DNA of 64,000 nt from an uncultured virus (IMG/VR IMGVR_UViG_3300020727_000006). Its lineage: Duplodnaviria; Heunggongvirae; Uroviricota; Caudoviricetes. Shown piece after piece: positions 5,851 to 46,006 of this stretch. The stretch lies in IMG/VR virus record IMGVR_UViG_3300020727_000006; one strand, written 5' to 3'. Made by a program: the position numbers and the translations under genes. Every line of letters begins with the position of its first letter. Position 1 is the first letter of the stretch. The notes beneath the pieces are model-generated. The model did not search any database. It was given only the letters and a program-made list of their open reading frames with translations, and was not told where the DNA came from.

Positions 5851-7902
5851 CTATTTTGAAGTTGCTCTAAAAACACCATCCCAACCTTCGCCTGGTAGAT
5901 TTTCTGCCATCTCTGTACAGCGTTCAATCCACATATCATAATAGCCATCCATTTGACCATCAAACTCACCTTTTAACTGCTTGCATGCATCAATAGCAGT
6001 TTTAAAGTGTTGTGAGCGATAATCATCCATCATACTAAGATGCCCACTTTTTGCTGCTAGGTATTCTGCGGCTGAACCAACATCATATATCTGTAGCACA
6101 GTGTGAATATTCACACCTTCTTTTTTACCCTTAACTGCAATGCAATCTAGTGGCAGAGTAAAGTACTCGTCCTTGACATATTCATTAGTCTTATCACCAA
6201 TAACCATAGCAACATGATATGGTTTACTTTGTCCTTCTAAGCGTGATGCCAGATTAACGCCATCACCAAGACAAGTATAATCAAAACGCTGACTAGAACC
6301 CATGTTGCCCACCACCACAGTAGCAGTGTTAATACCAAGCCCCATACCGAAAGGTGGAACACCTTCGGCAGCAACTTCTCTATTAAACGCATCTAAACTT
6401 CCTAACATTTGTAATGCTGTTTTCACAGCGTTTTTTGCATGGTCTGCATCATCAAGTGGTGCGTTCCAAAATGCCATTTGTGCATCACCAATATACTTGT
6501 CAAGAGTGCCCTCGTTTTCTAATATCTTTGCTGTCATCGCTGTCATATAGCGATTCATTATTTTGGTAAGACCTTGAACATCACTACCATAATGCTCAGA
6601 AATTGAAGTAAAGCCCCTAACATCGGTAAACATAATTGACAATTCACGAGACTCTCCACCAAGCGTTAATAATTCAGGATTCTTTTGTAGTTTCTCAACC
6701 ATTGCTGGTGAAAGATAAGTTCCAAATTGTTTCTTTATTTGTTGTTTTTGTAAGAACTCACTAACAAATTTAACTCCATAAGCATGCAATGCCACTAGTA
6801 TAATTGTGACAGTAAATGCAGTAGCGTCAAACAAATAAAGGTTGCTACTAAATTCGTACATGCTGCCACCAATACCAGCGAGAACAAGTACAACGACAGT
6901 TGATAATCCGACATAAGTCCACCTTGTTAAAAATAATAATAATAAACTACCAATGATAAGAGCAGCAAGTTCTGCGCCTTCTGCATAATCTGGTCTAGAA
7001 ATGTTAACCTTGTTTGCCAGTGTTGCAATAATTTTTGCTTGAATATCTTGTGGATATACAGCACCGATAGCAGTTGGAACAGGGTTAGCAATACCAGCCG
7101 CACTGGTGCCAACAATAACAACAGCGCCATCAAAGTTTTGTGGCATATTCATAAGACTTACTTGCTTATGCTGTTGACTTAAATCAATCCATACACGACC
7201 AAGTTGATCAGTGGTGAATATAGACTTGCCCATGCCCATCTTATCAATACCAATTTCACTTAACTTGACCTTAAAGTTCTTTTCTTGCATCAAGACACGC
7301 AGCGTCTCAATACCAATAGTAGGATAAAGTTTGCCGCCACTGCCAACAAGAAGTGGAATACGACGATTCACACCATCTATTTCAGGATATACATTTGTAG
7401 TTCCGACACCGATAGCGGCGTTTTCTAGTTCTGGAATGTTGGCGATTACCCCAGGATAATTGTAAATCCTATCAATAAAATTACTGTTGACAATGGCAGC
7501 ACCGTTAGGGCGAGGCGTATTTTTACTCACGCTGCTTGGAATATTTGAAAGAATGGTTGGGTGTTGCTTAAGAGTATCTGCTAGAACTGCATCACCGCCT
7601 TGACGGTCTGCCTCTGGCATCAACACTGTCCATACAACTAGACTTGCTCCACGAGCATAGATATCTTTAATAATATCCGCATATATTTGTCTATTAAACG
7701 GCCACTGACCATACTTGTCAAGTGCTGCTTCATCAATATTGACTGTATAAATTGGATTATCAGTTGGCGCTTTGTTGGTGATTAGCGTGTCAAAGTATCG
7801 TAACTTAATACTTTCAACAAAGTTGGGTGATGAAACTTTGATAGCAACTAATATTGCCAGCGTGATGAGTGCAGTCCATGGAGATAGCAGAATTTTTTTC
7901 AT
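5851..7902 (-). CDS. CHASE2-domain class III adenylate cyclase
   Basis: N-terminal TM, CHASE2 (IDEAAL..GQWPFNR, DGVNRR), three TMs, FTDVRGFT, DKYIGD, DYTCLGDGVNLASRLE (adenine-specifying K and D, catalytic N/R). Confidence 0.92.
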   Translation of the reverse strand: MKKILLSPWTALITLAILVAIKVSSPNFVESIKLRYFDTLITNKAPTDNPIYTVNIDEAALDKYGQWPFNRQIYADIIKDIYARGASLVVWTVLMPEADRQGGDAVLADTLKQHPTILSNIPSSVSKNTPRPNGAAIVNSNFIDRIYNYPGVIANIPELENAAIGVGTTNVYPEIDGVNRRIPLLVGSGGKLYPTIGIETLRVLMQEKNFKVKLSEIGIDKMGMGKSIFTTDQLGRVWIDLSQQHKQVSLMNMPQNFDGAVVIVGTSAAGIANPVPTAIGAVYPQDIQAKIIATLANKVNISRPDYAEGAELAALIIGSLLLLFLTRWTYVGLSTVVVLVLAGIGGSMYEFSSNLYLFDATAFTVTIILVALHAYGVKFVSEFLQKQQIKKQFGTYLSPAMVEKLQKNPELLTLGGESRELSIMFTDVRGFTSISEHYGSDVQGLTKIMNRYMTAMTAKILENEGTLDKYIGDAQMAFWNAPLDDADHAKNAVKTALQMLGSLDAFNREVAAEGVPPFGMGLGINTATVVVGNMGSSQRFDYTCLGDGVNLASRLEGQSKPYHVAMVIGDKTNEYVKDEYFTLPLDCIAVKGKKEGVNIHTVLQIYDVGSAAEYLAAKSGHLSMMDDYRSQHFKTAIDACKQLKGEFDGQMDGYYDMWIERCTEMAENLPGEGWDGVFRATSK

Positions 7903-10056: not shown

Positions 10057-10941
10057 TTAAGAAATTTTAAAGGCAATATAATTGACTATCTCGCTTGCAA
10101 TGTCAAGGCCGCAATATTTTTCAAATCCTTCAAAGCCAGGCGCACTGTTAGCTTCACAGACTTTGTAACCATCTTTGTCAAATAGCAAGTCAATGCCAGC
10201 AATATCTAAACTAAGAGATTTAGCAGTTTCACGACATAGCAAATCAATTTCGTCCGTAATAGGAAATGGTTCTCCTGTGCCGCCACCAGTGATATTAGCA
10301 CGGAAGTCTCCTTCTGGACCAATGCGTTTCATTGCGCCAATACACTTGCCGCCAATTACCCATACCCGCAGGTCAGTTCCAATAGCGGCATCAATGAACT
10401 CCTGAACGATCATTGTTTTCTTTACGCCAAGATTATCAACAAGGTCCATTAGATTGACAAAGTGTTCTTTTGTTGGGCAAAGATGAACACCCTTGCCATG
10501 CGAACCTTGCAGCACTTTAACTACGCAAGGGAAACCAATTTCTTGTTCAACAGTTGTGATATGAACAGGAAACTTCACTAACATTGTTTTAGGTGTTGGT
10601 ATATTATTTGCAACTAATATCTGGTGCGCAAGTAGCTTATCGCGCACATTATTGATAGCATCACTGCTGTTGATTGTTTGCACATTATACTTCTCAAGAT
10701 GTCGCATAACTGCACTGCTAAAATAATTTGTGCCAGCACCTGTTCGCGTTAGAACAAGTTTAGGCATGGCGATAAGATCACCTTGGTAGCGAATACTTTT
10801 ATTCTTGCTACGGTTAACTATGATATCAAAATGATCGGGATGCATAAGTTTGGCGTCAATACCTTTGGCAGCAAATGCCGAAAGCAAACGACCATTCTCA
10901 TAGCTATCACGATGTTGACTTAAAATCCACACTGTGCTCAT
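10057..10941 (-). CDS. rimK: RimK-family ATP-grasp alpha-L-glutamate ligase
   Basis: RDKLLAHQ, GFPCVVK..GSHGKGV, QEFI, DLRVWVIG, FRANI..GG, EANSAPG. Confidence 0.88.
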   Translation of the reverse strand: MSTVWILSQHRDSYENGRLLSAFAAKGIDAKLMHPDHFDIIVNRSKNKSIRYQGDLIAMPKLVLTRTGAGTNYFSSAVMRHLEKYNVQTINSSDAINNVRDKLLAHQILVANNIPTPKTMLVKFPVHITTVEQEIGFPCVVKVLQGSHGKGVHLCPTKEHFVNLMDLVDNLGVKKTMIVQEFIDAAIGTDLRVWVIGGKCIGAMKRIGPEGDFRANITGGGTGEPFPITDEIDLLCRETAKSLSLDIAGIDLLFDKDGYKVCEANSAPGFEGFEKYCGLDIASEIVNYIAFKIS

Positions 10942-11540: not shown

Positions 11541-11667
11541 TATAATCTCCTTTGTGTGTTTGTGTGTAATGTCTGTATACTGTTGTATACCAATATACTT
11601 ATTTTTAACTTCATACACAATAAAATAATTTCAACTGTTAAATATGTTAGGAATTTTTGGAGCAACT

Positions 11668-12147
11668 ATGCGTAAATTTGGCATTTTTATGACAGTTTTA
11701 ATGTTTTCATCTGCTGTTAATGCATCGCAGCTTGAATTTCAATTCAAGAGTCCACAGTTTAGTGGAAACGGTTATGGTACATATTCTCAGCAAATCGAAA
11801 ACACTGAGTATACACGCCAACAAGCAATAGAAGCGTCAAAACAAGCAGCAGCCGCTGCTGCAGAATCTGCTGCAAAAAACAGTATTTTAAACCAATTTGT
11901 TAACAATTTACAAAGTCGTATCTATGCACAGGTTAGTCAAAACATAGCTAACCAGTTGTTTAATGGCACTGCTGGGTCAGCTAGTACAACTTGCGCAACA
12001 GCAGCGGCTGGATGCACAGTTCAATTTCCAGATGGCAGCAATGTTACATTTTGGAATGATGGAACTAATGTTAGTTTACAAATAATTGGTGGGTCAAGTG
12101 ATAGTTCAACAACGGTAACTATACCAATCGGAGCGTTCAAATTATGA
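11668..12147 (+). CDS. csgF: Curli assembly protein CsgF-like
   Basis: Signal peptide, SQLEFQFKSPQFSGNG, FVNNLQSRIYAQVS, C-terminal TIPI. Confidence 0.8.
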   Translation: MRKFGIFMTVLMFSSAVNASQLEFQFKSPQFSGNGYGTYSQQIENTEYTRQQAIEASKQAAAAAAESAAKNSILNQFVNNLQSRIYAQVSQNIANQLFNGTAGSASTTCATAAAGCTVQFPDGSNVTFWNDGTNVSLQIIGGSSDSSTTVTIPIGAFKL

Positions 12148-12995
12148 TTAAAAAACTTATTATATTAACCACAACGGTTCTTGCATTATCGGCATGCCAG
12201 ACTGCTAAGGAAGTGGTAGTTAATGAAAGACCAACCATTGTTCAGCCCGAACTGGTAAATGAATTTAAAAGCGTTCGTGCACCAGATGGTCCTCCGTTTG
12301 TAGTAGCACTTTATAACTTTAGTGACAAAACAGGTCAACGCAAACCAAACGATGCTTATGCTAGTTTAAGTAGTGCAGTCACACAAGGCGCAGAAGTTCT
12401 TGTTATCAAGGCACTAAAAGAAGTTGGCAATGGCAAATGGTTTCGTGTTGTAGAACGAGTTGGAATTGATGATATTGTAAAAGAACGCCAAATGATTCGT
12501 CAAACTCGTGAAACATTTGAAGGAACAAGTGCAAAGCCACTAGACCCTATGTTATTTGCTGGCATATTAATTGAAGGCGGCGTAATAGGATATGACACCA
12601 ACAAACAAAGCGGTGGTGTTGGTGCTGCCTTTCTTGGAATAGGCGCTGATACACAATATAGCCAAGATGTAGTAACTGTTTCTATGCGAGCGGTAAGCGT
12701 TCAAACTGGCGAAGTTCTTATGGAAGTAAGCACTACAAAGAACATATTAAGCACAGGCAGCAATGTTACATTTTTTAAATTCTATGATTTAGGAACCCAA
12801 CATGTAGAAAGTGAAGCAGGGTATACGATCAATGAACCTGTCACTTATGCTGTTAGAGTTGCAATAGAAGCGGCAGTAGTAGAACTAATCAAAGAAGGTG
12901 TGCGTAAAAAATATTGGAATTACGCTTCAAGACCTGATTCAACTAAATCTTTATCAACAAAACCCGTTATACAAAATGGTGGAAGTAAGCAATAA
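12144..12995 (+). CDS. csgG: Curli secretion channel CsgG/HfaB-family lipoprotein
   Basis: Lipobox LSAC, FSDKTGQRKP, SSAVTQG, WFRVVER, KERQMIR, EGGVIGYD. Confidence 0.92.
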   Translation: MIKKLIILTTTVLALSACQTAKEVVVNERPTIVQPELVNEFKSVRAPDGPPFVVALYNFSDKTGQRKPNDAYASLSSAVTQGAEVLVIKALKEVGNGKWFRVVERVGIDDIVKERQMIRQTRETFEGTSAKPLDPMLFAGILIEGGVIGYDTNKQSGGVGAAFLGIGADTQYSQDVVTVSMRAVSVQTGEVLMEVSTTKNILSTGSNVTFFKFYDLGTQHVESEAGYTINEPVTYAVRVAIEAAVVELIKEGVRKKYWNYASRPDSTKSLSTKPVIQNGGSKQ

Positions 12996-13018
12996 TATAT
13001 TGTGATAAGGATGGAATT

Positions 13019-13747
13019 ATGAGTATAAAAAAAAGTTTAGCAATTGCAGCAATGCTTTTGTACACGGGTATTGCAAACGCCAATGAATTATATATTGATC
13101 AAGTAGGTAACAGCGGAACTGTTAATTTAAATCAAACTGGTATAAACAATACTATTGGAAGTTCTCCTGTGCCATTTAATATTACTGGTGATGGTAGCAC
13201 TATCACTATGACACAAAGCGGCACAAGTAATACTATGACAGGCGATATTACTGGTTCAGCAGTAGAATTTACTTCTATTGTGTCAGGAAGTTTCAACACG
13301 CAAACTAATTATGGTACTGGCATGGATAATAGTACTATAACACAAACTATTACAGGCGACACAAACACTGTTACAATAGGAAGTAGCGGTGCTGGATTAG
13401 CTGCTAATGGTATAAAAAGCACAGGCAGCGGACCAACTAGCACAATTGGTATGGGAACTAATGTCACTGTGGCATTGGCTATCACTGGCAATACTAACAA
13501 TGTATTAAGTATTCCACAAAGCAACAATGGTATACAAACCATTACTTTGAATGGCAGTAATAACGATGTTACTGCGGTTCAAACTGGTGGCGGTGTTGGT
13601 AGTGGTCAAGGCCATGATTTAACATTGACAGTAACTGGTGGCTATAATACATATGATATTAACCAAAGTGGTTCAACTAAACAAATTGCTAGTGTTAGTA
13701 CAATTGGAAGTAATAATACGGTTACTATTCGTCAAAATGGTAACTAA
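13019..13747 (+). CDS. Secreted curlin-like beta-repeat protein
   Basis: Signal peptide; repeats of (I/L)xQxGxxN rich in N/T/G/Q; adjacent to csgG. Confidence 0.75.
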   Translation: MSIKKSLAIAAMLLYTGIANANELYIDQVGNSGTVNLNQTGINNTIGSSPVPFNITGDGSTITMTQSGTSNTMTGDITGSAVEFTSIVSGSFNTQTNYGTGMDNSTITQTITGDTNTVTIGSSGAGLAANGIKSTGSGPTSTIGMGTNVTVALAITGNTNNVLSIPQSNNGIQTITLNGSNNDVTAVQTGGGVGSGQGHDLTLTVTGGYNTYDINQSGSTKQIASVSTIGSNNTVTIRQNGN

Positions 13748-13752
13748 AATCA

Positions 13753-14871
13753 ATGAAGAAGATACTGGCATTTCTCATGGTGATGGTATCATCCCAATGT
13801 GCAAGTGCTGCAGTGGGGACCATTACTGAACAAACTGGTCCCACTTCTATTACCAGAGACAAATCCAGCTTTGATACACAAAAAGGCGCTGGAGTTGAAA
13901 TGGCAGATACTATCAAAACTGCTAGATCGCGTGTTGGTATTCAATTTGAAGATAATAGCACAGTTCAGATTACCGAAGATAGCAAACTTGAAATAGATGA
14001 GTTTGTTTATGATCCAGAAAAAAATGTAGGTAAAATGGCTATCAAGGTTGCGCTTGGGACTGTTCGCATGGCTAGCGGCAATATTGCTCATAACAGTGCA
14101 GACAATGTTAATATTCAAACGCCAACCGCTACTATTGCGGTTCGTGGTACTGATTTTAGCATGAGCGTAGATGAAATTGGACGCAGTGTTATTGTGTTGT
14201 TGCCAAGTTGTCCGCCTTATATAAAAGATGAAGCATTATGTAAAGTAGGCGAAATATCAGTTATAACAAATAATGGTAAGGTCACACTTAATAAAGCATA
14301 TCAAGCAACAGTTGTTAATAGTAGAAATTCTCCGCCGTCTACGCCAAAGATTGTTTCTATTGGTCTTGAAAATATCAATAATATGATTTTAATTGCTGTC
14401 CCAAAAGAAATTAAAAAAGAGTACAGCAACGACAATCAACTTAAGATTGATCAAGTTAATGTAGATTTTCTTGATAAAGATTTTTTAAAGTTTGATGAAT
14501 TAAAGAAAAATGCGCTAGCTGATAATGCGTTATCAACTTATGGTGCTACTCGTTTAGATATTAACTTGTTGGCAGTAAGTTTTTTGTTTAATGTGCTATC
14601 TGTGGATGCTGACACAAGTGGATTAGGTGGAAATCTTCTTGCACAAGCGATGGACACTGTTTTACCAGATTTTAAACCTATTGCTGGTCTAAGTGCAGTA
14701 ATTACGCCATATGATGTAACCATTACTCGTCAAGCAAGCGATCAACTTGCTCAAATAACAGTGCAGCGTTTTACTAACGCCACACTGACTATTTCACAAG
14801 ATAACATTAAAACCATTACAAAAGTTAATGGCGGCAACACCGTTGCGTTTAATATAAAACAAAGTCCGTAA
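13753..14871 (+). CDS. Periplasmic FecR-domain protein
   Basis: Signal peptide, IQFEDNS, LEIDEFVYDP, TPTATIAVRGTDF. Confidence 0.88.
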   Translation: MKKILAFLMVMVSSQCASAAVGTITEQTGPTSITRDKSSFDTQKGAGVEMADTIKTARSRVGIQFEDNSTVQITEDSKLEIDEFVYDPEKNVGKMAIKVALGTVRMASGNIAHNSADNVNIQTPTATIAVRGTDFSMSVDEIGRSVIVLLPSCPPYIKDEALCKVGEISVITNNGKVTLNKAYQATVVNSRNSPPSTPKIVSIGLENINNMILIAVPKEIKKEYSNDNQLKIDQVNVDFLDKDFLKFDELKKNALADNALSTYGATRLDINLLAVSFLFNVLSVDADTSGLGGNLLAQAMDTVLPDFKPIAGLSAVITPYDVTITRQASDQLAQITVQRFTNATLTISQDNIKTITKVNGGNTVAFNIKQSP

Positions 14872-18408: not shown

Positions 18409-19500
18409 TTAGAAAAGATCAACTGTTTCCCATGGCAATCCATCTTTGCCAAAGTGTCCGTAATTAGTCGTAGCACTATAGATAGGACGGAATAGGTCAA
18501 ACTTGTTGATAATACCAAGTGGCGTTAAGTCAACATTCTCACGAATCCACTTTGTCAATGCACGACTATCGCCATTGCTTTCAACATAGAAACTCATTGG
18601 CTGTTCAAGACCAATAGCATAGGATACCTGAACTGTTGCCCAATCTGCTCGTCCGCTTGCCACGATATTCTTGGCAAGATAACGCATCATGTAAGCGGCA
18701 GACCTATCAACCTTTGTAGGGTCTTTACCACTAAATGCACCGCCACCATGAGGAGCAGAACCGCCGTAAGTATCAACAATAATCTTACGACCAGTAAGAC
18801 CAGTATCGCCATCTGGACCACCAATAACAAAGCGTCCAGTAGGATTGATATGAAACTGTGTGCGAGTATCAACTAAGCGGTCAGGAAGAATACCACGAAT
18901 AAGCTGTTCTACTCGTGTGCGAACCGTATGCATATCAGTATTTTCGCTATGCTGAGTAGAACACACTACCTTATCAATGCGAAATGGGTTGTTATCATCA
19001 TTGTATTCAACGGTAATTTGGCTCTTGGCATCTGGACCAAGCCAATCACGACCACTCTTGCGATGTTCAGCCAATACCTTGACAATTTCATGACTATAAT
19101 GGATGGCACTTGGCATAAAGTTTGGTGTCTCATTGGAAGCGTAACCAAACATCAAGCCCTGATCGCCAGCACCAAAAGTATCAGTACCTAGCGCAATATC
19201 AGCACTTTGACCATGCATTAGGTTGAGAATTTCAACAGTTCGCCAATCAAATCCACTTTGCTCATATCCAATATTTTTAATAGTATTGATAACAGCAGCA
19301 TCTACTAATTGTGGATCAAGTTCGCCTTTGTATTCACCTGCAATTACTACTTGATTAGTAGTAACAAGTGTTTCACACGCACACCGATAAGATTTATCAT
19401 GTGGTTGCATCATCAAATCTAGAATAGCATCGCTGATAGCATCAGCAACTTTATCTGGATGTCCTTCACTTACCGACTCGCTTGTAAAAAGATAACTCAT
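18409..19500 (-). CDS. metK: S-adenosylmethionine synthetase
   Basis: FTSESVSEGHPDK, GAGDQG, GGGAFSGKDPTKVDRS. Confidence 0.97.
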   Translation of the reverse strand: MSYLFTSESVSEGHPDKVADAISDAILDLMMQPHDKSYRCACETLVTTNQVVIAGEYKGELDPQLVDAAVINTIKNIGYEQSGFDWRTVEILNLMHGQSADIALGTDTFGAGDQGLMFGYASNETPNFMPSAIHYSHEIVKVLAEHRKSGRDWLGPDAKSQITVEYNDDNNPFRIDKVVCSTQHSENTDMHTVRTRVEQLIRGILPDRLVDTRTQFHINPTGRFVIGGPDGDTGLTGRKIIVDTYGGSAPHGGGAFSGKDPTKVDRSAAYMMRYLAKNIVASGRADWATVQVSYAIGLEQPMSFYVESNGDSRALTKWIRENVDLTPLGIINKFDLFRPIYSATTNYGHFGKDGLPWETVDLF

Positions 19501-23330: not shown

Positions 23331-24038
23331 TTAAAACCTAAGTGTGATGATGTGCTCGTAGTTTTTTTTAAAAAATCCACGATATAACAGATTCTTCTGT
23401 ATTACATAATCACTGCCGTTTAAATCACTGCTGTATTTTGCTAATTGTTTAAAATACATAGTACGGCGGTTTTCTGGGCCAAGAACTGTTAACTCATTAT
23501 GATTTTCTATATAGTATATATAGTTTTTCCAGTTCTGCCTATTATTTTTGTCTAATATATTTTGATCTAAGATTATTGACTCTGTTGCACCATGAGTAGC
23601 AATTGTATCAACTTGGCTTCTTTTGTGTGGCGCTGAGTTTTTATAGTCTTGTAGAGTGGTTATAACATAACCGTCTGTTACTGATTTAACATTTTCAAGT
23701 AAATCTCGCTGATCTTGTTCTGTTTCAGCATAGGTAAAATATTCATCTAGTGCAAGACAAACATCAACTTTGTTTTTAACATCTTTTATATTATCAACAA
23801 ATTCACTCTTAGATTGCCATGAATATTTTAAACTTTGGTCTGCTACGACAATACAATCATAATGATTTTCAAGCAATATAACAATTGGATTAAAAGAAGT
23901 TAACAAAACAGTGCGAGGAGAAATATTTAAGCTTGCAAACAACTTGTCTATAATATCAAATTTTGCTTGTGCTTGTTCAAGCCATCTATTAGGGTCAATA
24001 GTTTGTTGAATTTTTAACCAGTAATCCGTATTAATCAT
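23331..24038 (-). CDS. Hypothetical late protein (possible degenerate methyltransferase fold)
   Basis: GGAG RBS and ATG at 24038 lie within a late-promoter hairpin. Confidence 0.6.
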   Translation of the reverse strand: MINTDYWLKIQQTIDPNRWLEQAQAKFDIIDKLFASLNISPRTVLLTSFNPIVILLENHYDCIVVADQSLKYSWQSKSEFVDNIKDVKNKVDVCLALDEYFTYAETEQDQRDLLENVKSVTDGYVITTLQDYKNSAPHKRSQVDTIATHGATESIILDQNILDKNNRQNWKNYIYYIENHNELTVLGPENRRTMYFKQLAKYSSDLNGSDYVIQKNLLYRGFFKKNYEHIITLRF

Positions 24039-24078
24039 GCTGAACTCCACCTAATATTTAGTGGAAATTCAGCATGAT
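24034..24078 (-). promoter_or_regulatory. RBS-sequestering hairpin with late promoter in the loop
   Basis: ATCATGCTGAATTTCCAC-TAAATATTAG-GTGGAGTTCAGCATGAT. Confidence 0.75.
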
Positions 24079-24079
24079 C

Positions 24080-24277
24080 TTACTTAAGAATGATACCTAG
24101 TTCTTTCAAATCGTCATAAAGAGTGTGATCATTCGGAATGGTTTCTGTTTTGCCATCTTTGACATTTTTGACAATCTTTTCAATTTCATGCGTTTGCAAC
24201 TCTGTGCAACGCTTAAACGAAGCACGGACCTTGGTCCAATCTGGCTTGCCTTTATATCCCATGATCAACATTGTCAT
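24080..24277 (-). CDS. Small hypothetical early protein
   Basis: ORF downstream of TTGACA-17 nt-TATATT (24301-24329). Confidence 0.6.
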   Translation of the reverse strand: MTMLIMGYKGKPDWTKVRASFKRCTELQTHEIEKIVKNVKDGKTETIPNDHTLYDDLKELGIILK

Positions 24278-24333
24278 AACTCTCTTCTGTTTATTCTCTT
24301 AATATACTATATAGTTTTTATTTTGTCAAGTAG

Positions 24334-24533
24334 TTTTTAACGGGTGGGTTGCTATCCCCACGATGGTTTTAGGCTGGTCTACCATTTCGGGTTTCGTTTG
24401 TCTGACACAACTACCATTACCTTAAACAGGTCTCTCACCTGTGCAGTCCACTGATATTGGTATGCATCCCTCACAGATGGTTTTTAGTTATACTCGCTCC
24501 AACCTTTTAGCACAGCCGTGCCGCCGTTAAAAA
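24334..24533 (-). ncRNA. tRNA-shaped ncRNA of unknown family (about 200 nt)
   Basis: 10-bp terminal stem TTTTTAACGG/CCGTTAAAAA; GGCAC/GTGCT arm; AGGTTGG/CCAGCCT long-range stem; GTGGG-GATAGCAA-CCCAC T-like arm; ORF-free gap. Confidence 0.6.
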
Positions 24534-24536
24534 TTG

Positions 24537-25346
24537 TTATGTCCATAAACCTTTTCTTATACGAACAACAAGCATCAACATAGCAGTATCTTCTGCATCA
24601 TATGCTGCTTCAATTTCAAATGATTTATCTAGTGCCGCACGACCACGCGCTCGTTCTTCTGGGGTTTCTTGATCACGACTTTCAAAAATATGGTCATCAC
24701 CATACTTGTCACGCATATCATCGCAATACTGGCTCCAGTCACTTGCATCATGCACATCAGGACGATTTGGGCGATCAAACTTCCACCAGATATAAAGTTT
24801 CATTACATCAATGGCTCGTTGTGCTTGATCAGTCAATGTACCAAACTTTTCGTCACCCAGTTCCATTCCCCATGACTCATCGTAAAACAGTCCCATTTCC
24901 CATTTTAAATATTCTAAACCAAGTTCAGGACAACGACCGTTCTTCCACACAGCTTTCTTGCTTTCTTCTGTGCTCATCCAACGACTTTTCCATGCAACTT
25001 CCTTTTCGACATAATCAACAATACTTTGCATGATACCATGAAGAATGCGTTCATCTAAATCATGATATTCACCCACTGTTAATCCTGTTGGTAGAACATG
25101 AGTTTGACTCCAGAAACGATTGCGCAGATAATAACGAACATTATCAATATGACCAACTGTGTTGCGATCAATTTTATCAATGATACGAGGAAGAGTTTCA
25201 GTCACCCAATATCCAATAGGATGTGCAGCTTTGGTTTCACGCTTCCACACTGACCAAGCGCCCCATTCAAGAGCCACTGGCTTTTCAATCTTAAACTTCT
25301 TGCGAAGCCAATAGACTACTTTAGTTTCTGACCAATAACGATTCAT
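24537..25346 (-). CDS. Hypothetical protein (Trp-rich)
   Basis: Long ORF with AGGAG RBS and upstream TTGACA promoter. Confidence 0.7.
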   Translation of the reverse strand: MNRYWSETKVVYWLRKKFKIEKPVALEWGAWSVWKRETKAAHPIGYWVTETLPRIIDKIDRNTVGHIDNVRYYLRNRFWSQTHVLPTGLTVGEYHDLDERILHGIMQSIVDYVEKEVAWKSRWMSTEESKKAVWKNGRCPELGLEYLKWEMGLFYDESWGMELGDEKFGTLTDQAQRAIDVMKLYIWWKFDRPNRPDVHDASDWSQYCDDMRDKYGDDHIFESRDQETPEERARGRAALDKSFEIEAAYDAEDTAMLMLVVRIRKGLWT

Positions 25347-25408: not shown

Positions 25409-26149
25409 ATGATTTTAATTACAGGTGGGTGTAGTTTTAGTGACTGCACATATATAAAAAAAGAAAATAGTACTTGGCCCATTTATCTTTCTGAAAATAT
25501 AAATTTAGAAAAACATTACGCCACAGGCTTGGATAGTATAGGAAATTCGTTAATAAGTAAAAAAGTTTTATATACATGTGAACAATTGTTAAAAATTACG
25601 AATTCAGAAAATTTATTAGTCGGAATAATGTGGAGCAATCCAAATAGAGAAACTATATATATAAATGGAAAAATACCCCGTAAAGCAATACCACAAACTA
25701 AACTAAGTAACGACGATTTAGGAAGTTGGTTAATATTAAATGCACGCCACAATAACATGATTGCAAAAAATTATTTTGTTAATCTGCATGATGAAGTATG
25801 GGGATATATAAAAACACTCGAAATAATATTGCACACTCAATGGTATCTTGAAAGAAAAAATATAAAATATTTCATGATGCCTTATGAAAATTATGTTTTT
25901 AATGAAAAGTTATATGAAAACACAAATGTAAAATGGTTATATGATCAGATAGATTTTAGTAAATTTATCACAATGACAGGATGTTACGAGTGGTGCAGGG
26001 ATAACACAAATTTTCCGTTTAGAGAACACGAAGAAAATCTTGCTATCAAGCATCCTACTAGTGACCATCACAAGAGTTTTACAGAAAAAGTTATAATACC
26101 TTGGCTCGAAAACAACCAATATATAAATGGTGCCCAAAGAGAGGATTGA
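25409..26149 (+). CDS. AT-rich SGNH-like hypothetical protein
   Basis: N-terminal GCSFS, GN, C-terminal HPT..H; leaderless after TAAATA; 3' end overlaps the tRNA. Confidence 0.55.
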   Translation: MILITGGCSFSDCTYIKKENSTWPIYLSENINLEKHYATGLDSIGNSLISKKVLYTCEQLLKITNSENLLVGIMWSNPNRETIYINGKIPRKAIPQTKLSNDDLGSWLILNARHNNMIAKNYFVNLHDEVWGYIKTLEIILHTQWYLERKNIKYFMMPYENYVFNEKLYENTNVKWLYDQIDFSKFITMTGCYEWCRDNTNFPFREHEENLAIKHPTSDHHKSFTEKVIIPWLENNQYINGAQRED

Positions 26150-26202
26150 ACTCCCGACCTACGCATTACAAGTGCGTTGCACTACCGCTGTGCTATTTGG
26201 GC
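26128..26202 (-). tRNA. tRNA-Thr(UGU)
   Basis: Anticodon arm ACGCA-CTTGTAA-TGCGT; GTTCAATC; encoded CCA. Confidence 0.95.
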
Positions 26203-26601: not shown

Positions 26602-27378
26602 ATGCATTTTGATTTATACAGTGATTTACATGATAATTGGTGGCCAAAAGATCAATTATTAGACTACAAAGGTCTAGGAACTAGTTTAGTAGCAGTGGTT
26701 GCAGGTGATATAAGCAATAACTGGGATTATAGTTTTAATACACTGCTTGAGATTGGGCAACATTATCGCCATGTTATTTTCGTAGATGGAAATCATGAAC
26801 ATAACCATCAATCAAACATTTCAGAAAATTGTGCAAAGTTTCAAGAACGGCTATCGCCGTATCGCAATATAACATTTTTATATAAAAGCTGCATAGTTTT
26901 AGATGATACTGCGTTCGTTGGATGCAACGGATGGTGGACTTATGATTTCTGTCAGCCAGAAGTTTCGACCGCCGAATGTTGGGATGGGTTATTAAACAAT
27001 GTTTACCATGAATCGTTGCAAAGTGAAATTTTTATCACTGCAAAGTTAGAAGCACAAACTTTGTTAAATCAAGTTGAAACTTTTAACAATGATCCACGCA
27101 TTGGTAACATAGTTGTTGTTACACATACTAGTCCTATGCAAAAATTTAGATATATTAATCCAGAAATGGAATTTTTCCATATGGGACGAGCAGGTAATAG
27201 TTTAATGAGTTTAGTATTAAACGCGAATACTAATAAGAAAATTAGTACTTGGTGCTTTGGGCATGTCCACAAAGAATATGATGAAGTGATAGATGGTATT
27301 CGTTATGTATGCCATCCTCGTGGAAGGGCAGAAGAAAATATTGGGCAGATTTACTACCCAAAATTAATTACAGCTTAA
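26602..27378 (+). CDS. Calcineurin-like metallophosphoesterase
   Basis: SDLH, AGD, GNHE, THT, GHVH motifs. Confidence 0.88.
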   Translation: MHFDLYSDLHDNWWPKDQLLDYKGLGTSLVAVVAGDISNNWDYSFNTLLEIGQHYRHVIFVDGNHEHNHQSNISENCAKFQERLSPYRNITFLYKSCIVLDDTAFVGCNGWWTYDFCQPEVSTAECWDGLLNNVYHESLQSEIFITAKLEAQTLLNQVETFNNDPRIGNIVVVTHTSPMQKFRYINPEMEFFHMGRAGNSLMSLVLNANTNKKISTWCFGHVHKEYDEVIDGIRYVCHPRGRAEENIGQIYYPKLITA

Positions 27379-27698
27379 GCTTCTGGTTCTAGCTTTACAG
27401 ATAGTGGAAATTTATTCTTGCGAGCCAGCACTGTAACTTCAACAGCTTTACTTTCTGCAATTTCAAAAGGCAGCACCGCTACAGTGGCTTGCCCCTGTTC
27501 ATGAATTTTTGCAGTCAGTGACATAGCATAATCTTCTGCATGGTCAAACAATTCTTGTAATACAGCCATTACAAATTCTACTGTTGTAACATTGTCGTTA
27601 ACAAATATTACTTGAAACTGTGGAGGCGGAGTGAGATCAGTTTTTGGCTGAATCTTGACACGAGTTGTAGTGTTGGTTTCTGTGCTCATTTTGCTCAT
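27375..27698 (-). CDS. clpS: N-degron adaptor ClpS
   Basis: VIFVNDNVTTVEFV, KIHEQG, EIAESK, FPL. Confidence 0.9.
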   Translation of the reverse strand: MSKMSTETNTTTRVKIQPKTDLTPPPQFQVIFVNDNVTTVEFVMAVLQELFDHAEDYAMSLTAKIHEQGQATVAVLPFEIAESKAVEVTVLARKNKFPLSVKLEPEA

Positions 27699-27749: not shown

Positions 27750-28190
27750 TTATTCTGAAATTACTGGAATTTTCTTTGGCTTCTTTTCGTCTGGAACAAT
27801 ATGCTCCAGTTCTACGATAAGCAAGCCATTTTTAACCTTTGCAGCATTTACTACAACATCATCACTTAGTGAGAATGTGCGAATAAACTTGCGAGCAGCA
27901 ATGCCACGATGAAGATACTCATTGGTATCCTCGTCGGTGTTTTCGCCAGTGATAACCAATTGATTATCAGTCAAGGTGATATCAATATCCTTTTCAGAGA
28001 AGCCACTAATGGCAATCTGAATTTCATAATTGGTTTCATCATTGCGGATGATATTGTATGGGGGATAATTTTGTTGTACTTGGATGCTGTTTACACGCAG
28101 CATATCATCAAACATACGATCAAAACCAATAGTGGTACGGTGAAGGTTATCAAATAATTTTTGGTCGAAGACCTGTAGAAGGTTACTCAT
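27750..28190 (-). CDS. Small heat shock protein Hsp20 (IbpA-like)
   Basis: IGFDRMF, NYPPYNI, YLHRGIAARKF, NGLL. Confidence 0.95.
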   Translation of the reverse strand: MSNLLQVFDQKLFDNLHRTTIGFDRMFDDMLRVNSIQVQQNYPPYNIIRNDETNYEIQIAISGFSEKDIDITLTDNQLVITGENTDEDTNEYLHRGIAARKFIRTFSLSDDVVVNAAKVKNGLLIVELEHIVPDEKKPKKIPVISE

Positions 28191-29413: not shown

Positions 29414-29659
29414 TTAACGAGCAATACCTTGGGTACGAAGTTCTTTCAACTTCTTTTGCCAACGCTTAACAGCACGGGCTTTTGCCTTTTTGCGCTGTTG
29501 ACTAGGAGTTTCAAACCGCTCACGATCACGGAGTGTTTGAAAAATGCCGTCTTGCTGGATGATCTTCTTCATCTTACGCAGTGCTTTAGTTACATCTCCG
29601 TTATGAACTTCAACAAACAAACCTCTTTGACGAACATTTTCTAATTCTGGTCTATACAT
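29414..29659 (-). CDS. rpsU: Ribosomal protein bS21
   Basis: VEVHNGDVTKALRKMKK...RERFETPSQQRKKAK..AVKR; GAGG RBS. Confidence 0.85.
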   Translation of the reverse strand: MYRPELENVRQRGLFVEVHNGDVTKALRKMKKIIQQDGIFQTLRDRERFETPSQQRKKAKARAVKRWQKKLKELRTQGIAR

Positions 29660-30044
29660 TTTTTTCCTCTTGTTTAATGTAATTATTAAATTGCTGAGCA
29701 AGCCAAGAATAAATGTCAAAGACATTTCTGTGTGTTGCCGCACCAATATCGTTAGCCCCCAATGCCCATGTGTTTTTTTGACTTAGAAGCCAACCTTTGA
29801 GCATTTCTTTATTTCCACTAAATCTACAATTGACAAGTGTAGTATAAGCATGCTTGCTTGTGTTGATACACCATACATCATCTGTATCATTGCTACCATA
29901 CAAGAATATAGTAACATCAGTATTCATTGCTTCAATAGCTTTGCTAAGTTTTTCAACATCGCTCCACTCTACATCAACCAATAATATCTTGAACCTGTCA
30001 TCTAAATCCATATCAGGCGCAGTTACAATTCTACTTGTATTCAT
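29652..30044 (-). CDS. Hypothetical protein
   Basis: Operonic ORF with overlaps at both ends. Confidence 0.6.
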   Translation of the reverse strand: MNTSRIVTAPDMDLDDRFKILLVDVEWSDVEKLSKAIEAMNTDVTIFLYGSNDTDDVWCINTSKHAYTTLVNCRFSGNKEMLKGWLLSQKNTWALGANDIGAATHRNVFDIYSWLAQQFNNYIKQEEKNV

Positions 30045-32788: not shown

Positions 32789-33255
32789 TTTGCATCCGTA
32801 TAAAACCAGTGGTGTCCTATCTTTTTAATAAACTTGAACTGTTTGTTCTTAAATGGTTTATTATTAAAGTATAGCGCACCATCGGTTGGATCAACCATAT
32901 ATGTTGAATATAACACCATCATTGCTATACTATAAAAATCTCCACGATTTTTGTCTTGGTCAACTGGCTTAAATGGAAAACATATAAAAGTAAATTGACA
33001 ATCAATTCCATGTCGTTCATAAACGATTTTGCATGGCGAGTTAGGAAACTTTCCACTTTGTAATCTATTACGAATTACCCAAGCAATCGCAACTTGTCCC
33101 ATATAGTCTTCGCCGCCAGCTTCATTTTTAATAGCTTGGGCAACACACTCGCTAGGATCTTCCACATAGTAAGGAATTTTGGGGGGTTGCTCTTTGGCTA
33201 AAACAGGATAACTCACTGCCGTGATAAGCGCCAAAGATAATAAGAGTTTTTTCAT
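32785..33255 (-). CDS. SleB-like cell wall hydrolase
   Basis: Signal peptide, EAGGE..GQVAIA.VI.NR, QF, DPTDGALYF, IGHHWFY. Confidence 0.9.
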   Translation of the reverse strand: MKKLLLSLALITAVSYPVLAKEQPPKIPYYVEDPSECVAQAIKNEAGGEDYMGQVAIAWVIRNRLQSGKFPNSPCKIVYERHGIDCQFTFICFPFKPVDQDKNRGDFYSIAMMVLYSTYMVDPTDGALYFNNKPFKNKQFKFIKKIGHHWFYTDAN

Positions 33256-33264
33256 TAACCTCTC

Positions 33265-33558
33265 AAAAAGGTGGGGGGATTCTGTTGCCAAGTTCCCCCC
33301 GTTACTCCGATCAAGCCGCTAGGCGAAGATCATATGCATTGTTGTCGTTTGCATTTACGATTTTTACTAACATCTACTCAAAACCTTTACTGCACTTGTC
33401 GATCCTATTTCGCCCCCATCAAAGATACACCGGGTGTTCGGAAAAACCTATTACGCCATATTTGTTCCGACTATGACGACCGATGTATCTATGGTGGAGG
33501 CGCCGGGTACCGCCCCCGGGTCCAATATGCCTATTCTGTTTCGCCTCAACAATATTAG
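33265..33558 (-). ncRNA. ssrA: Two-piece (circularly permuted) tmRNA, tag ANDNNAYDLRLAA
   Basis: 3' acceptor/T segment GACCCGGGGGCGGTACCCGGCGCCTCCACCA ends at 33492, hairpin spacer, then GGGGGCGAAATAGGATCGAC at 33417 and tag at 33352-33311; promoter TTGACA-17 nt-TATAAATA. Confidence 0.93.
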
Positions 33559-33602
33559 TATGTTATTTATAGCATATGGAAAAGGTTATGTCAAGGGTTA
33601 TT

Positions 33603-39172: not shown

Positions 39173-40297
39173 TTATTCCTTTTCTATTACTTCTATTTTC
39201 CAATCTTTATTTTTACCTCTTTTGCTTGGAGGCCAATTATCTTGTATATTTTTTTGAAATGTTGCAAAACTTAAATTGTTGTCTATGCAAAACTGTTTCA
39301 ACTCTCCACCATATAACATGTATATATTATCATTATTTGTTAGTTTATAACAATTACTTAGATAGTGATTTTTACCCGTTGGCATTGTTCTGTTTTCTTT
39401 AATTTTTTGTATTGTTTCTGGGCTATGATGTTTGCCATACATTGGATTATTACTGCCAGTAGTAAGTTCTCTAAACTTTGCACGAGTTTCTTCACTGTGC
39501 TTTTTAGGTCCATAACCACCCCGTTCTTTTTGTAATTGCGAACGCTTTAATCGCTGCAATTCTGCTCCTTCCTTACCATATATTTCTTCGTAAGTCTTTC
39601 CTCGGTGGCTCGGTGGTCTTGCTTCTAAACATATGTTGGTTAAGATACCATAAGGTTCATATCCTTTGCGACCATACCGCAATATTAAATCTTCTTCCAT
39701 TTTATAAGCAAAATTTTCATCAATAATATCTTCTGCAAGATATTCAATTTGTGGTTCTAATCCTGCTTTTCTAATAGCATCAATCTTATTTTCTTTATGA
39801 ATATTGTCACTTCTTGACATATCCCAAAGATGCGTTTGTGCTCGCTTACCAGTTCCCTTGCCAATATAAAATGGCATATTATTTCTTGGGTCTATAAGTG
39901 CATATACATAATACATAATATCTAATTCCTGCTCATTGTATTTAGCAAGAGATAGAGAATATATATTATTTGTAGTATATTTTTGTGTATTATTTTTTAA
40001 TTTGGCAAATACATTTAATTTTCTTTTATCGGCAAATGGAGTAATATCTATCAAGTTTCCATCATTGTCCTGCCATACACTATGCAATATTGCTTGATAT
40101 CCCCACGCACTTTCCAAGAAATAATATCCAAGTATTTTTTCTCCCCCATGACTAAGAATATAATTTTTTACATTTGTATGGCATATATTTTCTTCGCAAC
40201 TTGCATCAGGATTGACTGGAATATTTCCTAACCAATCACAACCAATACTGCGAGCAAAATCAGCAACTGAAGTTGCTGATGGTATAAACCAAATCAA
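39173..40297 (-). mobile_element. GIY-YIG/NUMOD3 homing endonuclease fused to an N-terminal Cys-His-Asp domain; internal start at 39916
   Basis: YYVYALIDPR..FYIGKG, NUMOD3 (HSEETR, HHSPET); N-domain CHTNV..HSVW..DITP. Confidence 0.8.
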
Positions 40298-41409
40298 AGA
40301 CTAAATCCCTTAAATGTATCGTTGGATACATCCTGTTTGGTTCCGCCAATGATATACGAACTTATCTGCGTTTGCTGGGGGGCCACTTGAACTTCTGCAC
40401 CAGCAATCCATTTCTGTGTCCAAGGCAGTGGGTTATTCTTAGTAGGATATGGTTGACCGAGACCAACTGCTTGCATACGCTTATTAGCAATAAACTCAAC
40501 ATATTCAGCAAGTAGTTGATAGTTTAGACCAATCATAGAGCCATCTTTAAACAGGTATTGCGCCCATGCCTTTTCTTGATTGACTGCATCATCAAATAGT
40601 TTGATAGCCGCATCACGACATTCCGTTTCAATCTTGGCATAATCAGGATCATCTTTAGGTAGCAGTTTTAGTAAGGTTTGTGTGCCAGCAAGATGCAGAT
40701 TTTCATCACGAGCAATCAACTTGATAATTTTGGCATTGCCTTCCATTTTCTTCAATTCAGCAAATGCCCAACTGCAAGCAAATGAAACATAAAAGCGAAC
40801 ACCTTCAAGAATGTTCACACTCATAAGTGCAAGCCAAAGTGCTTTTTTATGTTCATAATTAAACCCGCCCCAATCAGGTGGATCGAAGTCATCTAGGGTT
40901 CTTTGGTTATTCATCGTAATAAGTTTATCATAAAGCGCAGTGATATCACCAGCACAATCAACAATTTCTTGAATGTCCATCATTTCATCAAATACTTTTG
41001 ATGGATTAGCATATACATTGCGAATGATATGAGTATATGAACGAGAGTGAATAGTTTCACTGAATGTCCAAGTAGTGATCCATGTTTCTAACTCTGGTAG
41101 TGAACAGATTGGACCAAATGCCACTGCTGGCGCACGACCTTGAACCGAATCAAGTAAGATTTGACGCTTTAAGTTGCTTGTAAAGATATGCTGCTCATTT
41201 TGGGACAAGTCTTTAAAATCTTTGGCATCACGAAGAATATCTATTTCTTGTGGTAACCAAAAGAAAGATAATTGCTTTTCGGTAAGTTTTTCAAACTGGC
41301 GGTATTTGATAGTATCGTAACGCTGAATACTTACACCGCCATGTGGGTCTAGGAAAGCCAGCGACTTTGTGTGGTCACTCTTATCATTTGCATCAAATAC
41401 TGTACTCAT
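40294..41409 (-). CDS. nrdB: Class Ia ribonucleotide reductase beta subunit
   Basis: FFWLPQE, LDSVQGR, ETIHSRSY, LEGVRFYVSF, RDENLH, VAPQ..ISSY. Confidence 0.97.
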   Translation of the reverse strand: MSTVFDANDKSDHTKSLAFLDPHGGVSIQRYDTIKYRQFEKLTEKQLSFFWLPQEIDILRDAKDFKDLSQNEQHIFTSNLKRQILLDSVQGRAPAVAFGPICSLPELETWITTWTFSETIHSRSYTHIIRNVYANPSKVFDEMMDIQEIVDCAGDITALYDKLITMNNQRTLDDFDPPDWGGFNYEHKKALWLALMSVNILEGVRFYVSFACSWAFAELKKMEGNAKIIKLIARDENLHLAGTQTLLKLLPKDDPDYAKIETECRDAAIKLFDDAVNQEKAWAQYLFKDGSMIGLNYQLLAEYVEFIANKRMQAVGLGQPYPTKNNPLPWTQKWIAGAEVQVAPQQTQISSYIIGGTKQDVSNDTFKGFSL

Positions 41410-41435
41410 TGTTAACCTCAATTTTAACTATTATG

Positions 41436-42686
41436 TCATATTTTGTTATTAATATCAATTTCAAATTCTTGTAACCAAGGAAAAATTTGTCGCCAATCTG
41501 TTCCACGGCGACGATCTTTTTCATTTAAGTATGTGAATAATTTACTTATTTCTTTTTGATTTTGAACACTTTTCTTTACAGAATTTGCAATTCCACGCAT
41601 ACACATTATAGAATTTTTTTCTTCTTCATTATTAGATGGCATTAGAGATATAATATTTTCAAAATCATCCATAAAAAAATCAGGTCCAAAGATGCCAGGT
41701 TTCATATAAATTGGAGTTGGTCCAACTTCTCCAAGATACTGTGCTACTTTACCAATTGATTTCCAATACACAAGTTTTTCAATAAGTTGTGGCATTGTTT
41801 TTATTGTTAGTGAACTTATTGTCTGATGTATTTTTAAAGAAATCCATTTTTGTTTCAATAGATATTCAAAATTACTTTCCCATAAATTTAAATTTAATCC
41901 ATATCTAACATATTCTTGTTCTTTACCCCAACAATCAATACTACATATAACTCCAAGTGATTTAATTTTTCTCTTTTTAATTAGATTTTTTGTTTTTTCA
42001 ACAAATTCTTTTAACTTTTCATTCGGTATGTTTAAATTTGTAGTAATTGAGATACTAAGATTTATGTTTGGTTTTTTTTCAAAAAAATCTAATAGAATAT
42101 CTAATTCTTTTTGAAGTAATGGCTCACCACCTAAAATATGTAATTCACTTAATACATGAGAATTTTTATTAAGCCATGTCCAAAAATATGGAACTAAAGT
42201 TTTATATTTCTTTTCCCTAGATATTAAATCAATTCCATTACTATTAAAGTTACCAAATTCTTTATTTTCTTTAGCAATGAACGAACTTAAATTTGGTCCG
42301 CAATATAAGCAACCCATGTTACATGTATTGTTAAAATATACTTCAAGAATAGTAGGAGATACGGTTGTTGAATTAATGTTTTCTTTTAATTCTGGTGGAA
42401 TTGCATGTGGCAATGTTAAATGTAAATTTCTATCGCTGAACCCACCAGAATTTTCTATATTTTTGCAATAACCACAACTAGAATCAGGCCATTTTCCATT
42501 TAACATTGCTTCTCTATCAGCAATTTTAATTTCTGTATTATGAAAATTTTCAAAATTTTCTGGAGTTAATGTGCTTTCACTCGTTCTAAAACAAGAACGA
42601 GTGATACCGCTATTCAAAAAAAGTGTGCTCCAATTCCATTTTAATGCACATGCAGTTGCAGTTTTTATAGGAAAATTGCTTTCCAT
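41436..42686 (-). CDS. AT-rich radical SAM protein with N-terminal Cys cluster (twitch/SPASM-like)
   Basis: CNMGCLYC, GGEP, SID; TAATG coupled to the nrdA stop. Confidence 0.85.
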   Translation of the reverse strand: MESNFPIKTATACALKWNWSTLFLNSGITRSCFRTSESTLTPENFENFHNTEIKIADREAMLNGKWPDSSCGYCKNIENSGGFSDRNLHLTLPHAIPPELKENINSTTVSPTILEVYFNNTCNMGCLYCGPNLSSFIAKENKEFGNFNSNGIDLISREKKYKTLVPYFWTWLNKNSHVLSELHILGGEPLLQKELDILLDFFEKKPNINLSISITTNLNIPNEKLKEFVEKTKNLIKKRKIKSLGVICSIDCWGKEQEYVRYGLNLNLWESNFEYLLKQKWISLKIHQTISSLTIKTMPQLIEKLVYWKSIGKVAQYLGEVGPTPIYMKPGIFGPDFFMDDFENIISLMPSNNEEEKNSIMCMRGIANSVKKSVQNQKEISKLFTYLNEKDRRRGTDWRQIFPWLQEFEIDINNKI

Positions 42687-44483: not shown

Positions 44484-44508
44484 AATATATCTCCCGATAT
44501 ATTATTTA
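44482..44508 (-). promoter_or_regulatory. Late promoter plus RBS-occluding hairpin for the endonuclease
   Basis: TAAATA overlapping ATAATATATC-GGGA-GATATATTAT(G). Confidence 0.7.
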
Positions 44509-45995: not shown

Positions 45996-46006
45996 TCTAT
46001 TCTCTT

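Follow-up and report, generated by a model that had tools for sequence, protein, structure and literature searches.

The minus strand at positions 24334-24533 of IMG/VR record IMGVR_UViG_3300020727_000006, from an uncultured giant phage (Caudoviricetes), very probably carries a gene for a 200-nucleotide (nt) structured RNA of a new family, as judged by comparison of related loci. The stretch of DNA analysed, 64,000 nt long, is referred to below as the window. An initial annotation, made from the letters of this stretch without database searches, had proposed an unannotated minus-strand RNA of about 200 nt at this site, and homologs, compensatory base changes and the lack of an Rfam match at the locus bear this proposal out. 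RNA positions are numbered from the 5' end, so that subtracting an RNA position from 24534 gives its coordinate in the window; the parts of the RNA described below all lie on the minus strand.

Conservation and covariation of the RNA

The family comprises 23 distinct RNA versions, all on contigs of uncultured freshwater giant phages. Exact-motif scans placed the element on 23 IMG/VR contigs and in 17 Joint Genome Institute (JGI) metagenome records. It is complete in 90 of the 93 loci examined, and these reduce to 20 distinct sequences, the window's included (two truncated copies, L014 and L036, were excluded from the counts). A covariance model built from the close sequences, R1, finds its sole significant match in the window at 24334-24533, with 232.7 bits and an E-value of 2.9e-64. 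When R1 was run over the best 80 loci among the relatives of the gene that lies 5' of the RNA (more than 450 in IMG/VR) and over 19 further loci, three divergent members were found: L106 (45.9 bits), L110 (53.6 bits) and L187 (58.6 bits).

Identity to the window copy is 85-100% for the RNAs of the close group and drops to 79% in two forms without one of the hairpins. The adjacent 65-amino-acid (aa) gene has only 48.5-62.1% identity at its third codon positions (in the 15 of 19 variants that allow the comparison), and in L002 an identical RNA stands beside a gene that is only 79.8% identical. The gap had been described as free of open reading frames (ORFs), and it does hold no conserved one: its frames span 16-47 aa and are interrupted by insertions and deletions, and the variable columns are spread evenly over the codon phases (15/16/13). 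Since the RNA is conserved, the frames are not and the codon phases are even, we read the gap as constrained non-coding sequence.

Compensatory changes point to a common fold. Among the 20 close sequences 94.9% of the alignment cells pair, and in seven pairs both partners have changed; covariation scores 0.101 compared with 0.065 in shuffles, none of 500 of which reaches the observed value, and controls in which the structure was slid along the alignment give at most 0.049. In a model-made alignment of all 23 sequences, both-sided changes are seen in 27 of 50 pairs, as against 6.8 ± 1.8 after shuffling (0 of 500 shuffles reach 27) and at most nine pairs in the slid controls. A hand-mapped table counts 22 of 48 pairs as compensatory, with at least one in every helix including the pseudoknot. 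Covariation among collected homologs, one of the checks that the initial annotation had named, comes out in favour of the RNA, with 23 versions and compensatory changes in every helix.

The strand, too, is as originally called. G-U pairs favour the minus strand (55 G-U against six A-C cells), the RNAalifold energy is -37.9 kcal/mol for the minus and -29.7 kcal/mol for the plus strand, and the orientation of the promoter and terminator signals found in relatives agrees with transcription from the minus strand.

Rfam release 15 (4227 models) contains no model that matches the locus, searched as 24200-24650, at E-values up to 10; the divergent members give sub-threshold Rfam matches only, none of them at the gathering threshold. 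A distant blastn search left the locus unmatched in GenBank phages (50,697 records), a megablast of 10 kb against GenBank phages returned a match to tRNA-Thr only, and the nearest record, a 24.8-kb fragment (G001), does not contain the locus. A published catalogue lists 10,006 candidate structured RNAs from IMG/VR (PMC10690425), and the searchable part of its supplements holds none of six contig numbers looked up. With that catalogue checkable in part only, full-text searches of the literature yielded no description of the RNA.

The motif scans also returned chance matches, namely L053 and, in two of the scans, 41 of 43 and 10 of 13 loci; further scans gave no new members. A degenerate two-block pattern, run over a genome collection with one genome for each of 185,579 species, hit a single locus in a cellular genome, which R1 did not confirm and which we therefore regard as a chance match. 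R1 found nothing better than E = 0.95 in any of five related phage records that carry the upstream gene, and in L115 and L116 a 230-aa ORF occupies the RNA's position. Each of three whole records has one copy, and one of these records is a complete genome of 338,435 bp with direct terminal repeats. A weak R1 match elsewhere in the window (1537-1599, plus strand; 10.6 bits, E = 0.092) is probably noise. As far as these sequence searches extend, the family is restricted to phages, namely to one clade of freshwater giant phages, each genome having a single copy.

Architecture and transcription

The fold consists of a closing helix P1 of 10 base pairs (bp), a four-way junction of P1, P2, P3 and P8, and a 120-nt domain with three arms (P4-P5, P6 and P7) that is borne on P3; a 5-bp pseudoknot links the strand after P6 to the P3-P8 junction strand. 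The cloverleaf-like outline drawn in the initial annotation, in which a closing stem is joined by a short arm on the 5' side, a long arm holding a domain of about 120 nt and a 3' arm that abuts the stem, is retained, and every stem and repeat that it listed was found again within 24334-24533. The predicted minus-strand fold includes the arm GGCAC/GUGCU, the stem AGGUUGG/CCAGCCU and the hairpin ACAGGU/ACCUGU.

P1 pairs RNA 1-10 (24524-24533) with RNA 191-200 (24334-24343). On the DNA these are the terminal arms CCGTTAAAAA and TTTTTAACGG, respectively, a 10-nt perfect inverted repeat (100% complementary) with a spacing of 180 nt. The helix shows one G-U variant, and an A-U pair is replaced by G-C in L110; it is on the inverted repeat and this change that the assignment of the 3' strand is based. 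P2, a hairpin of 4 bp with the loop GGCU at RNA 13-24 (24510-24521), is invariant in the 20 close versions and has three of its four pairs exchanged in L106. On the other side of the junction P8, the hairpin GUGGG-GAUAGCAA-CCCAC at RNA 173-190 (24344-24361), is followed by the 3' strand of P1 with zero nucleotides between them, and the DNA accordingly reads GTGGG-8 nt-CCCAC directly next to the 3' closing strand. Pairs 175:188 and 177:186 of P8 are exchanged in divergent members, and position 179:184 is A/A in 17, G/G in five and G/A in one of the 23 sequences.

P3 is formed by RNA 29-35 (24499-24505) and RNA 157-163 (24371-24377), with compensatory changes in six of its seven pairs across the 23 sequences. 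It is followed by an unpaired stretch, RNA 36-53 (24481-24498), whose core GAGYGAG-N3-AACU is near-invariant in all 23. The P4-P5 arm, RNA 54-86 (24448-24480), ends in the self-complementary apical loop AUGCAU (RNA 67-72, window 24462-24467). Of the 20 close versions, 15 have G-C and five A-U at pair 56:84, and 13 have A-U and seven C-G at pair 67:72. P6, RNA 87-115 (24419-24447), combines the hairpin ACAGGU-GAGAG-ACCUGU with a 3-bp extension and does not vary in the close versions; its pair 93:107 is C-G in all 20 of them and U-A in the three divergent members. P7 is a variable hairpin at RNA 122-138 (24396-24412) in which three pairs are changed on both sides in the close versions, and which is the site of a clean 21-nt deletion in L006 and L091.

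The pseudoknot, PK2, joins AUGGU at RNA 117-121 (24413-24417) to ACCAU at RNA 167-171 in the P3-P8 junction (24363-24367). In L110 and L187 it becomes AGUGU/ACACU and in L106 GGG/CCC, these three sequences having been aligned by hand. ACCAT and ATGGT had previously been paired as a sub-hairpin inside the large domain. The pairing as such stands, and its placement does not: the relatives support a pseudoknot of AUGGU 117-121 with a second ACCAU at 167-171. Two longer words, a 9-mer and an 8-mer, occur twice each in the element: GATGGTTTT (reverse complement of AAAACCATC) and CTACCATT (reverse complement of AATGGTAG).

By its predicted signals, the RNA in relatives is a separate transcription unit. 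A near-consensus sigma-70 promoter ends 3 nt ahead of P1, and inspection by eye assigns the RNA its own promoter in seven of 17 distinct upstream flanks, whatever lies further upstream. A promoter scan agrees in L015 and L106. L015 has TTGACA-17-TACAAT at 1378-1406 (11 of 12 consensus matches), followed by the RNA at 1410-1610. In L106 a promoter at 4052-4080 precedes the RNA (4084-4305); an intrinsic terminator at 4311-4326, 5 nt past P1, has a run of T after it, and another promoter, for the next gene, lies at 4332-4360. In L110 a U run comes immediately past P1. The next gene of the window has a sigma-70-type promoter as well, TTGACA-17-TATATT at 24301-24329 on the minus strand (11 of 12 consensus matches), which begins 5 nt past the RNA; among relatives its hexamers are conserved and its spacer is variable.

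Several observations weigh against reading the element as an independent RNA gene with this fold. Folded by itself, the minus strand reaches -56.2 kcal/mol with z = -1.85, eight of 200 shuffles being as stable, and the plus strand has z = -2.11; since a lone sequence folds barely better than chance, the case rests on the comparison of relatives and not on thermodynamics. P1, P2, P6 and P8 have no support inside the close group, where they are invariant and hence uninformative either way, and depend on the three divergent sequences. These were placed by hand or by model fit, and each procedure is biased in favour of the structure. When MAFFT aligned all 23 sequences blind to structure, it put the 3' strand of P3 in the wrong place in L106 and set the pseudoknot strand off by one base; because the divergent members are misaligned in it, this alignment was excluded from counting. 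In 13 of the 20 close versions P3 contains a G-A mismatch (31:161), and P5 has only two or three pairs in the main group. A scan of the flanks of the window copy found neither a promoter nor a terminator of its own, and in five other flanks the stop codon of the same type of upstream gene lies 3 nt before the RNA, with no promoter seen. None of the 24 sequencing runs listed as containing this DNA is an RNA dataset. As for a possible partner, homologs of the 65-aa gene also occur in relatives that do not have the RNA, so that a functional tie between the two is not established.

For the window copy, the lack of its own promoter makes transcription together with the upstream gene probable. This gene encodes 269 aa on the minus strand (24537-25346), has its stop codon 3 nt before the RNA and is preceded by a promoter-like site, TTGACA-17-TAAATT, at 25396-25368. 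The RNA would then probably be made as part of the upstream gene's transcript and be excised from it.

Possible modes of action

Our preferred account, held tentatively and at somewhat less than an even chance, is that of a trans-acting RNA particle that binds a partner. The RNA would be made by host RNA polymerase early in infection and would act in trans as a compact, stable particle; its P6 loop may serve, with the invariant unpaired stretch, to bind a conserved protein or a ribosomal partner, and the RNA may do so as a homodimer held together by the self-complementary loop at the tip of P5. Pairing with mRNA would not be its mode of action. A more specific version, in which the RNA belongs to a new class of self-assembling particles that dimerise via the P5 loop and are made early to seize a conserved host machine, or else has an invariant core that is the active site of an undescribed ribozyme, we consider unlikely. 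In this version the translation apparatus would be the most plausible target, as suggested by the bS21, RimK, tmRNA (transfer-messenger RNA) and tRNA genes of the phage and by a neighbouring protein whose fold resembles the C-terminal domain of L7/L12.

Dimer formation as such is possible but on balance doubtful. The apical loop of P5 is AUGCAU in 13 and CUGCAG in seven of the close sequences, and the divergent members have GUGCAC (L106), UCUAGA (L110) and CUUCGAAG (L187). The joint chance of self-complementary loops of differing sequence in four lineages is about 3e-6, a post hoc figure that depends on loop limits set by ourselves. Palindromes of 6 nt are, however, common by chance when whole arms are considered (P = 0.32-0.51), and both the covariation at 67:72 and the loop of L106, which tops a stable 4-bp stem, are explained equally well by an ordinary pair closing a UGCA tetraloop. 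Given the tetraloop alternative and the frequency of palindromes, we treat pairing between two copies as a lead and not as a finding.

Known oligomeric RNAs offer partial parallels. The phi29-type pRNA is a structured phage RNA that forms oligomers via loop-loop base pairs, and, like a pRNA gene, the RNA gene described here is found near a genome end, at a distance of 11 kb in the complete 338-kb relative. Rings of pRNA, however, arise from the pairing of two different loops, whereas the window RNA has a single self-complementary loop; it also has no Rfam match, comes from an entirely different type of phage and shows no link to packaging genes. GOLLD, ROOL, raiA and OLE likewise have conserved, complex, pseudoknotted folds and no known function, and several of them are reported to form homo-oligomers. 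Their Rfam models do not match the window RNA, which differs from them in its restriction to one phage clade and is far smaller than GOLLD, ROOL and OLE.

An element acting in cis on the mRNA, be it a processing site, a stability element, an insulator or a read-through sensor for the 65-aa gene, is improbable, though it fits the loci in which the RNA is embedded: in the window and five further flanks the RNA starts 3 nt past a stop codon and lacks a promoter and terminator of its own, and the same 65-aa gene always follows downstream. Between the RNA and that gene, however, lies the gene's conserved sigma-70 promoter, joined in L106 by a terminator and a new promoter; seven flanks provide the RNA with a promoter of its own, and the constraint goes far beyond what a processing hairpin needs. 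A riboswitch or other 5' leader was considered and rejected on the same grounds: a promoter, and in L106 a terminator as well, separates the RNA from the next gene.

A tRNA mimic, as the initial annotation had supposed, would imitate the acceptor/T and D arms with the P1/P8 stack and P2, and would serve as a decoy or a processing signal; ribonuclease P, elongation factors, the ribosome and tRNA-targeting defence nucleases are the candidates for binding or cutting it. We rate this explanation as quite unlikely. What speaks for it is the cloverleaf-like four-way junction with P8 flush against the 3' strand of P1, and its surroundings are compatible: a tRNA-Thr gene lies nearby (window 26128-26202), in four relatives a tRNA gene whose anticodon is CUA separates the upstream gene from the RNA, the phage has other translation genes (bS21, RimK and tmRNA), and rnaC of phage T4 is a precedent for a tRNA-framed stable RNA of a phage. 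tRNA, tmRNA and the bacterial Y RNA of the YrlA type share this outline, a four-way junction whose 3' hairpin stacks on the terminal helix.

The likeness ends with the outline. P1 has 10 bp instead of the seven of a tRNA, the 8-nt loop of P8 has a U-R-R-C core and is not a T-loop, and the spacers measure 4-5 nt between P2 and P3 and nine nt between P3 and P8. T-loop, D-loop, anticodon and CCA are missing from the window RNA; the initial annotation had already noted the lack of an anticodon and of CCA, and the gene does not encode CCA past P1. In the 20 close versions GCU of the P2 loop could form an elbow-like pairing with AGC of the P8 loop, which never varies there; this pairing was rejected because L106, L110 and L187 alter both loops without compensation. 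As the divergent members do not retain the elbow, the resemblance to tRNA is one of outline only. ARAGORN, named in the initial annotation as a check together with Rfam, makes no tRNA or tmRNA call at this locus; its only calls in the window are tRNA-Gln, tRNA-Thr and the tmRNA, all elsewhere, and at the RNA of eight relatives it finds nothing. The Rfam tRNA model RF00005, also silent at the RNA in the window and the eight relatives, matches just the tRNA-Gln and tRNA-Thr genes in the window. With no T-loop, anticodon, CCA, 7-bp stem or conserved elbow, the RNA finds no support as a tRNA mimic in any defining sense. The idea of a decoy for anticodon nucleases falls too, because without an anticodon-like loop the nuclease has no target. 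No gene of the Ro60 type was found among the window ORFs scanned against Pfam (13, then 47 of 72).

The small stable RNAs of phage T4, rnaC (species 1 RNA, 139 nt) and rnaD (species 2 RNA, 119 nt), are likewise phage-encoded, structured and paired at their termini, and they are made alongside phage tRNA genes. The T arm of rnaC, the closest precedent, is CCGGGUUCGAAUCCCGG; we take it to be canonical, and it has no counterpart in the window RNA. This RNA is longer than both, is pseudoknotted and lies outside a tRNA operon, and R1, run with filters off on the tRNA region of T4, does not exceed 7 bits, a noise-level score; there is no similarity in sequence or model. According to PMC3014915, the biological roles of rnaC and rnaD are unknown.

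Slightly less probable than a tRNA mimic is a ribozyme whose active site would be formed by the unpaired stretch and the pseudoknotted core and which might, for instance, free the RNA from the upstream mRNA by self-cleavage. The compact pseudoknotted core of several helices with its near-invariant unpaired stretch would suit a catalyst, and copies without a promoter would need excision. Yet no Rfam ribozyme matches at E-values up to 10, a conserved cleavage-site context was not identified, and self-cleavage would be superfluous in relatives that have a promoter for the RNA. We think it very unlikely that the RNA is a base-pairing small RNA with the invariant unpaired stretch as the seed for phage or host mRNAs. 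An accessible conserved stretch of about 16 nt is there, but the 64-kb window contains no complementary site with up to three mismatches elsewhere, and small RNAs of the seed type are usually much smaller and less tightly structured.

An element acting at the DNA level (a miniature transposon, a replication origin or a recombination site), as might be suggested by the 10-bp perfect terminal inverted repeats and an upstream neighbour that differs between genomes, is highly improbable in view of the single copy per genome, the compensatory internal changes with their strand bias of 55 G-U to six A-C cells, the flanking promoter and terminator in relatives and a GC skew that does not change at the site. 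Two further candidates were examined and dropped. A miniature inverted-repeat transposable element does not fit the single copy in the window and in each of the three whole records, or flanks without duplication. For a retron msr-msd the inverted repeats are present, but the six neighbouring proteins give no match to a reverse transcriptase or defence family (Pfam, PADLOC); we conclude that the RNA is not part of a retron because no reverse transcriptase is nearby.

Neighbouring genes and significance

The 65-aa gene (24080-24277, minus strand) lies 3' of the RNA and follows it in 23 of 24 loci examined, that is, in every relative whose sequence extends that far. Its product is modelled by AlphaFold with a mean predicted local distance difference test (pLDDT) score of 92.9 as a beta-alpha-alpha-beta-alpha-beta fold. 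The closest structural matches are the C-terminal domain of L7/L12 (Z = 7.4; root-mean-square deviation 1.9 Å over 59 residues) and ClpS (Z = 6.4-7.0), while unrelated folds reach Z = 4.3 at most; the best Foldseek E-value is 0.075, and a profile search against PDB sequences gave nothing below E = 0.59. If the model is right, the protein would be a stand-alone copy of a domain that recruits translation factors.

Further along the minus strand, conserved downstream of the 65-aa gene, a 239-aa protein without a Pfam match is encoded at 23331-24050; a language model gave a weak lead to class I methyltransferases dependent on S-adenosylmethionine (SAM), with a score of 0.90. The same window also encodes a SAM synthetase (18409-19500) and an AdoMet decarboxylase (1932-2294). 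The product of the upstream 269-aa gene, whose more than 450 relatives lie on IMG/VR contigs that are in many cases longer than 100 kb, is modelled as all-helical (pLDDT 82.7) and has no significant match in the PDB. Neither Pfam nor PHROG nor PADLOC offers a family for the 65-, 269- and 239-aa proteins. In the four relatives with a tRNA of anticodon CUA between the 269-aa gene and the RNA, this amber-reading tRNA, labelled tRNA-Pyl by ARAGORN, is found at 3302-3378 (L106), 3293-3369 (L110), 549-625 (L015) and 345-421 (L006); the window does not have it.

The window comes from a giant phage with host-like genes that include two tRNAs, a SAM synthetase and a ribonucleotide reductase. A permuted two-piece tmRNA with the tag ANDNNAYDLRLAA is found at 33220-33598 on the minus strand (141.6 bits with the alphaproteobacterial tmRNA model). 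On the same strand, bS21 (29414-29746), a ClpS adaptor (27375-27698), Hsp20 (27750-28190) and a RimK-type ATP-grasp protein (10057-10941) together resemble a kit for translation and the quality control of proteins. Parts of a curli secretion system lie on the plus strand at 11644-14871, with CsgF-like, CsgG-like, curlin-repeat and FecR-domain proteins. In the ribonucleotide reductase region (39173-46010, minus strand) the large subunit is divided between the ORFs 44502-46010 and 42686-43735, which flank a third one of 252 aa, and the small-subunit gene is adjoined by a radical-SAM-like ORF and an ORF resembling GIY-YIG/NUMOD3 endonucleases. A 683-aa protein encoded at 5851-7902 on the minus strand combines a CHASE2 sensor domain with an adenylate/guanylate cyclase domain.

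Giant phages have many genes that interfere with host translation, and to our knowledge almost nothing has been reported on their non-coding RNAs. Comparable RNAs have repeatedly proved to be ribozymes, protein sponges or self-assembling particles. The practical limit here is that the host is uncultured; the RNA itself, being small, lends itself to cryo-electron microscopy or crystallography and to simple assays of binding and dimerisation. What the family adds is a compact 200-nt RNA without an Rfam relative that is under stronger sequence constraint than the proteins encoded around it, and it would thereby set a second, unrelated example beside the stable RNAs of phage T4, whose function has been a puzzle for 50 years.

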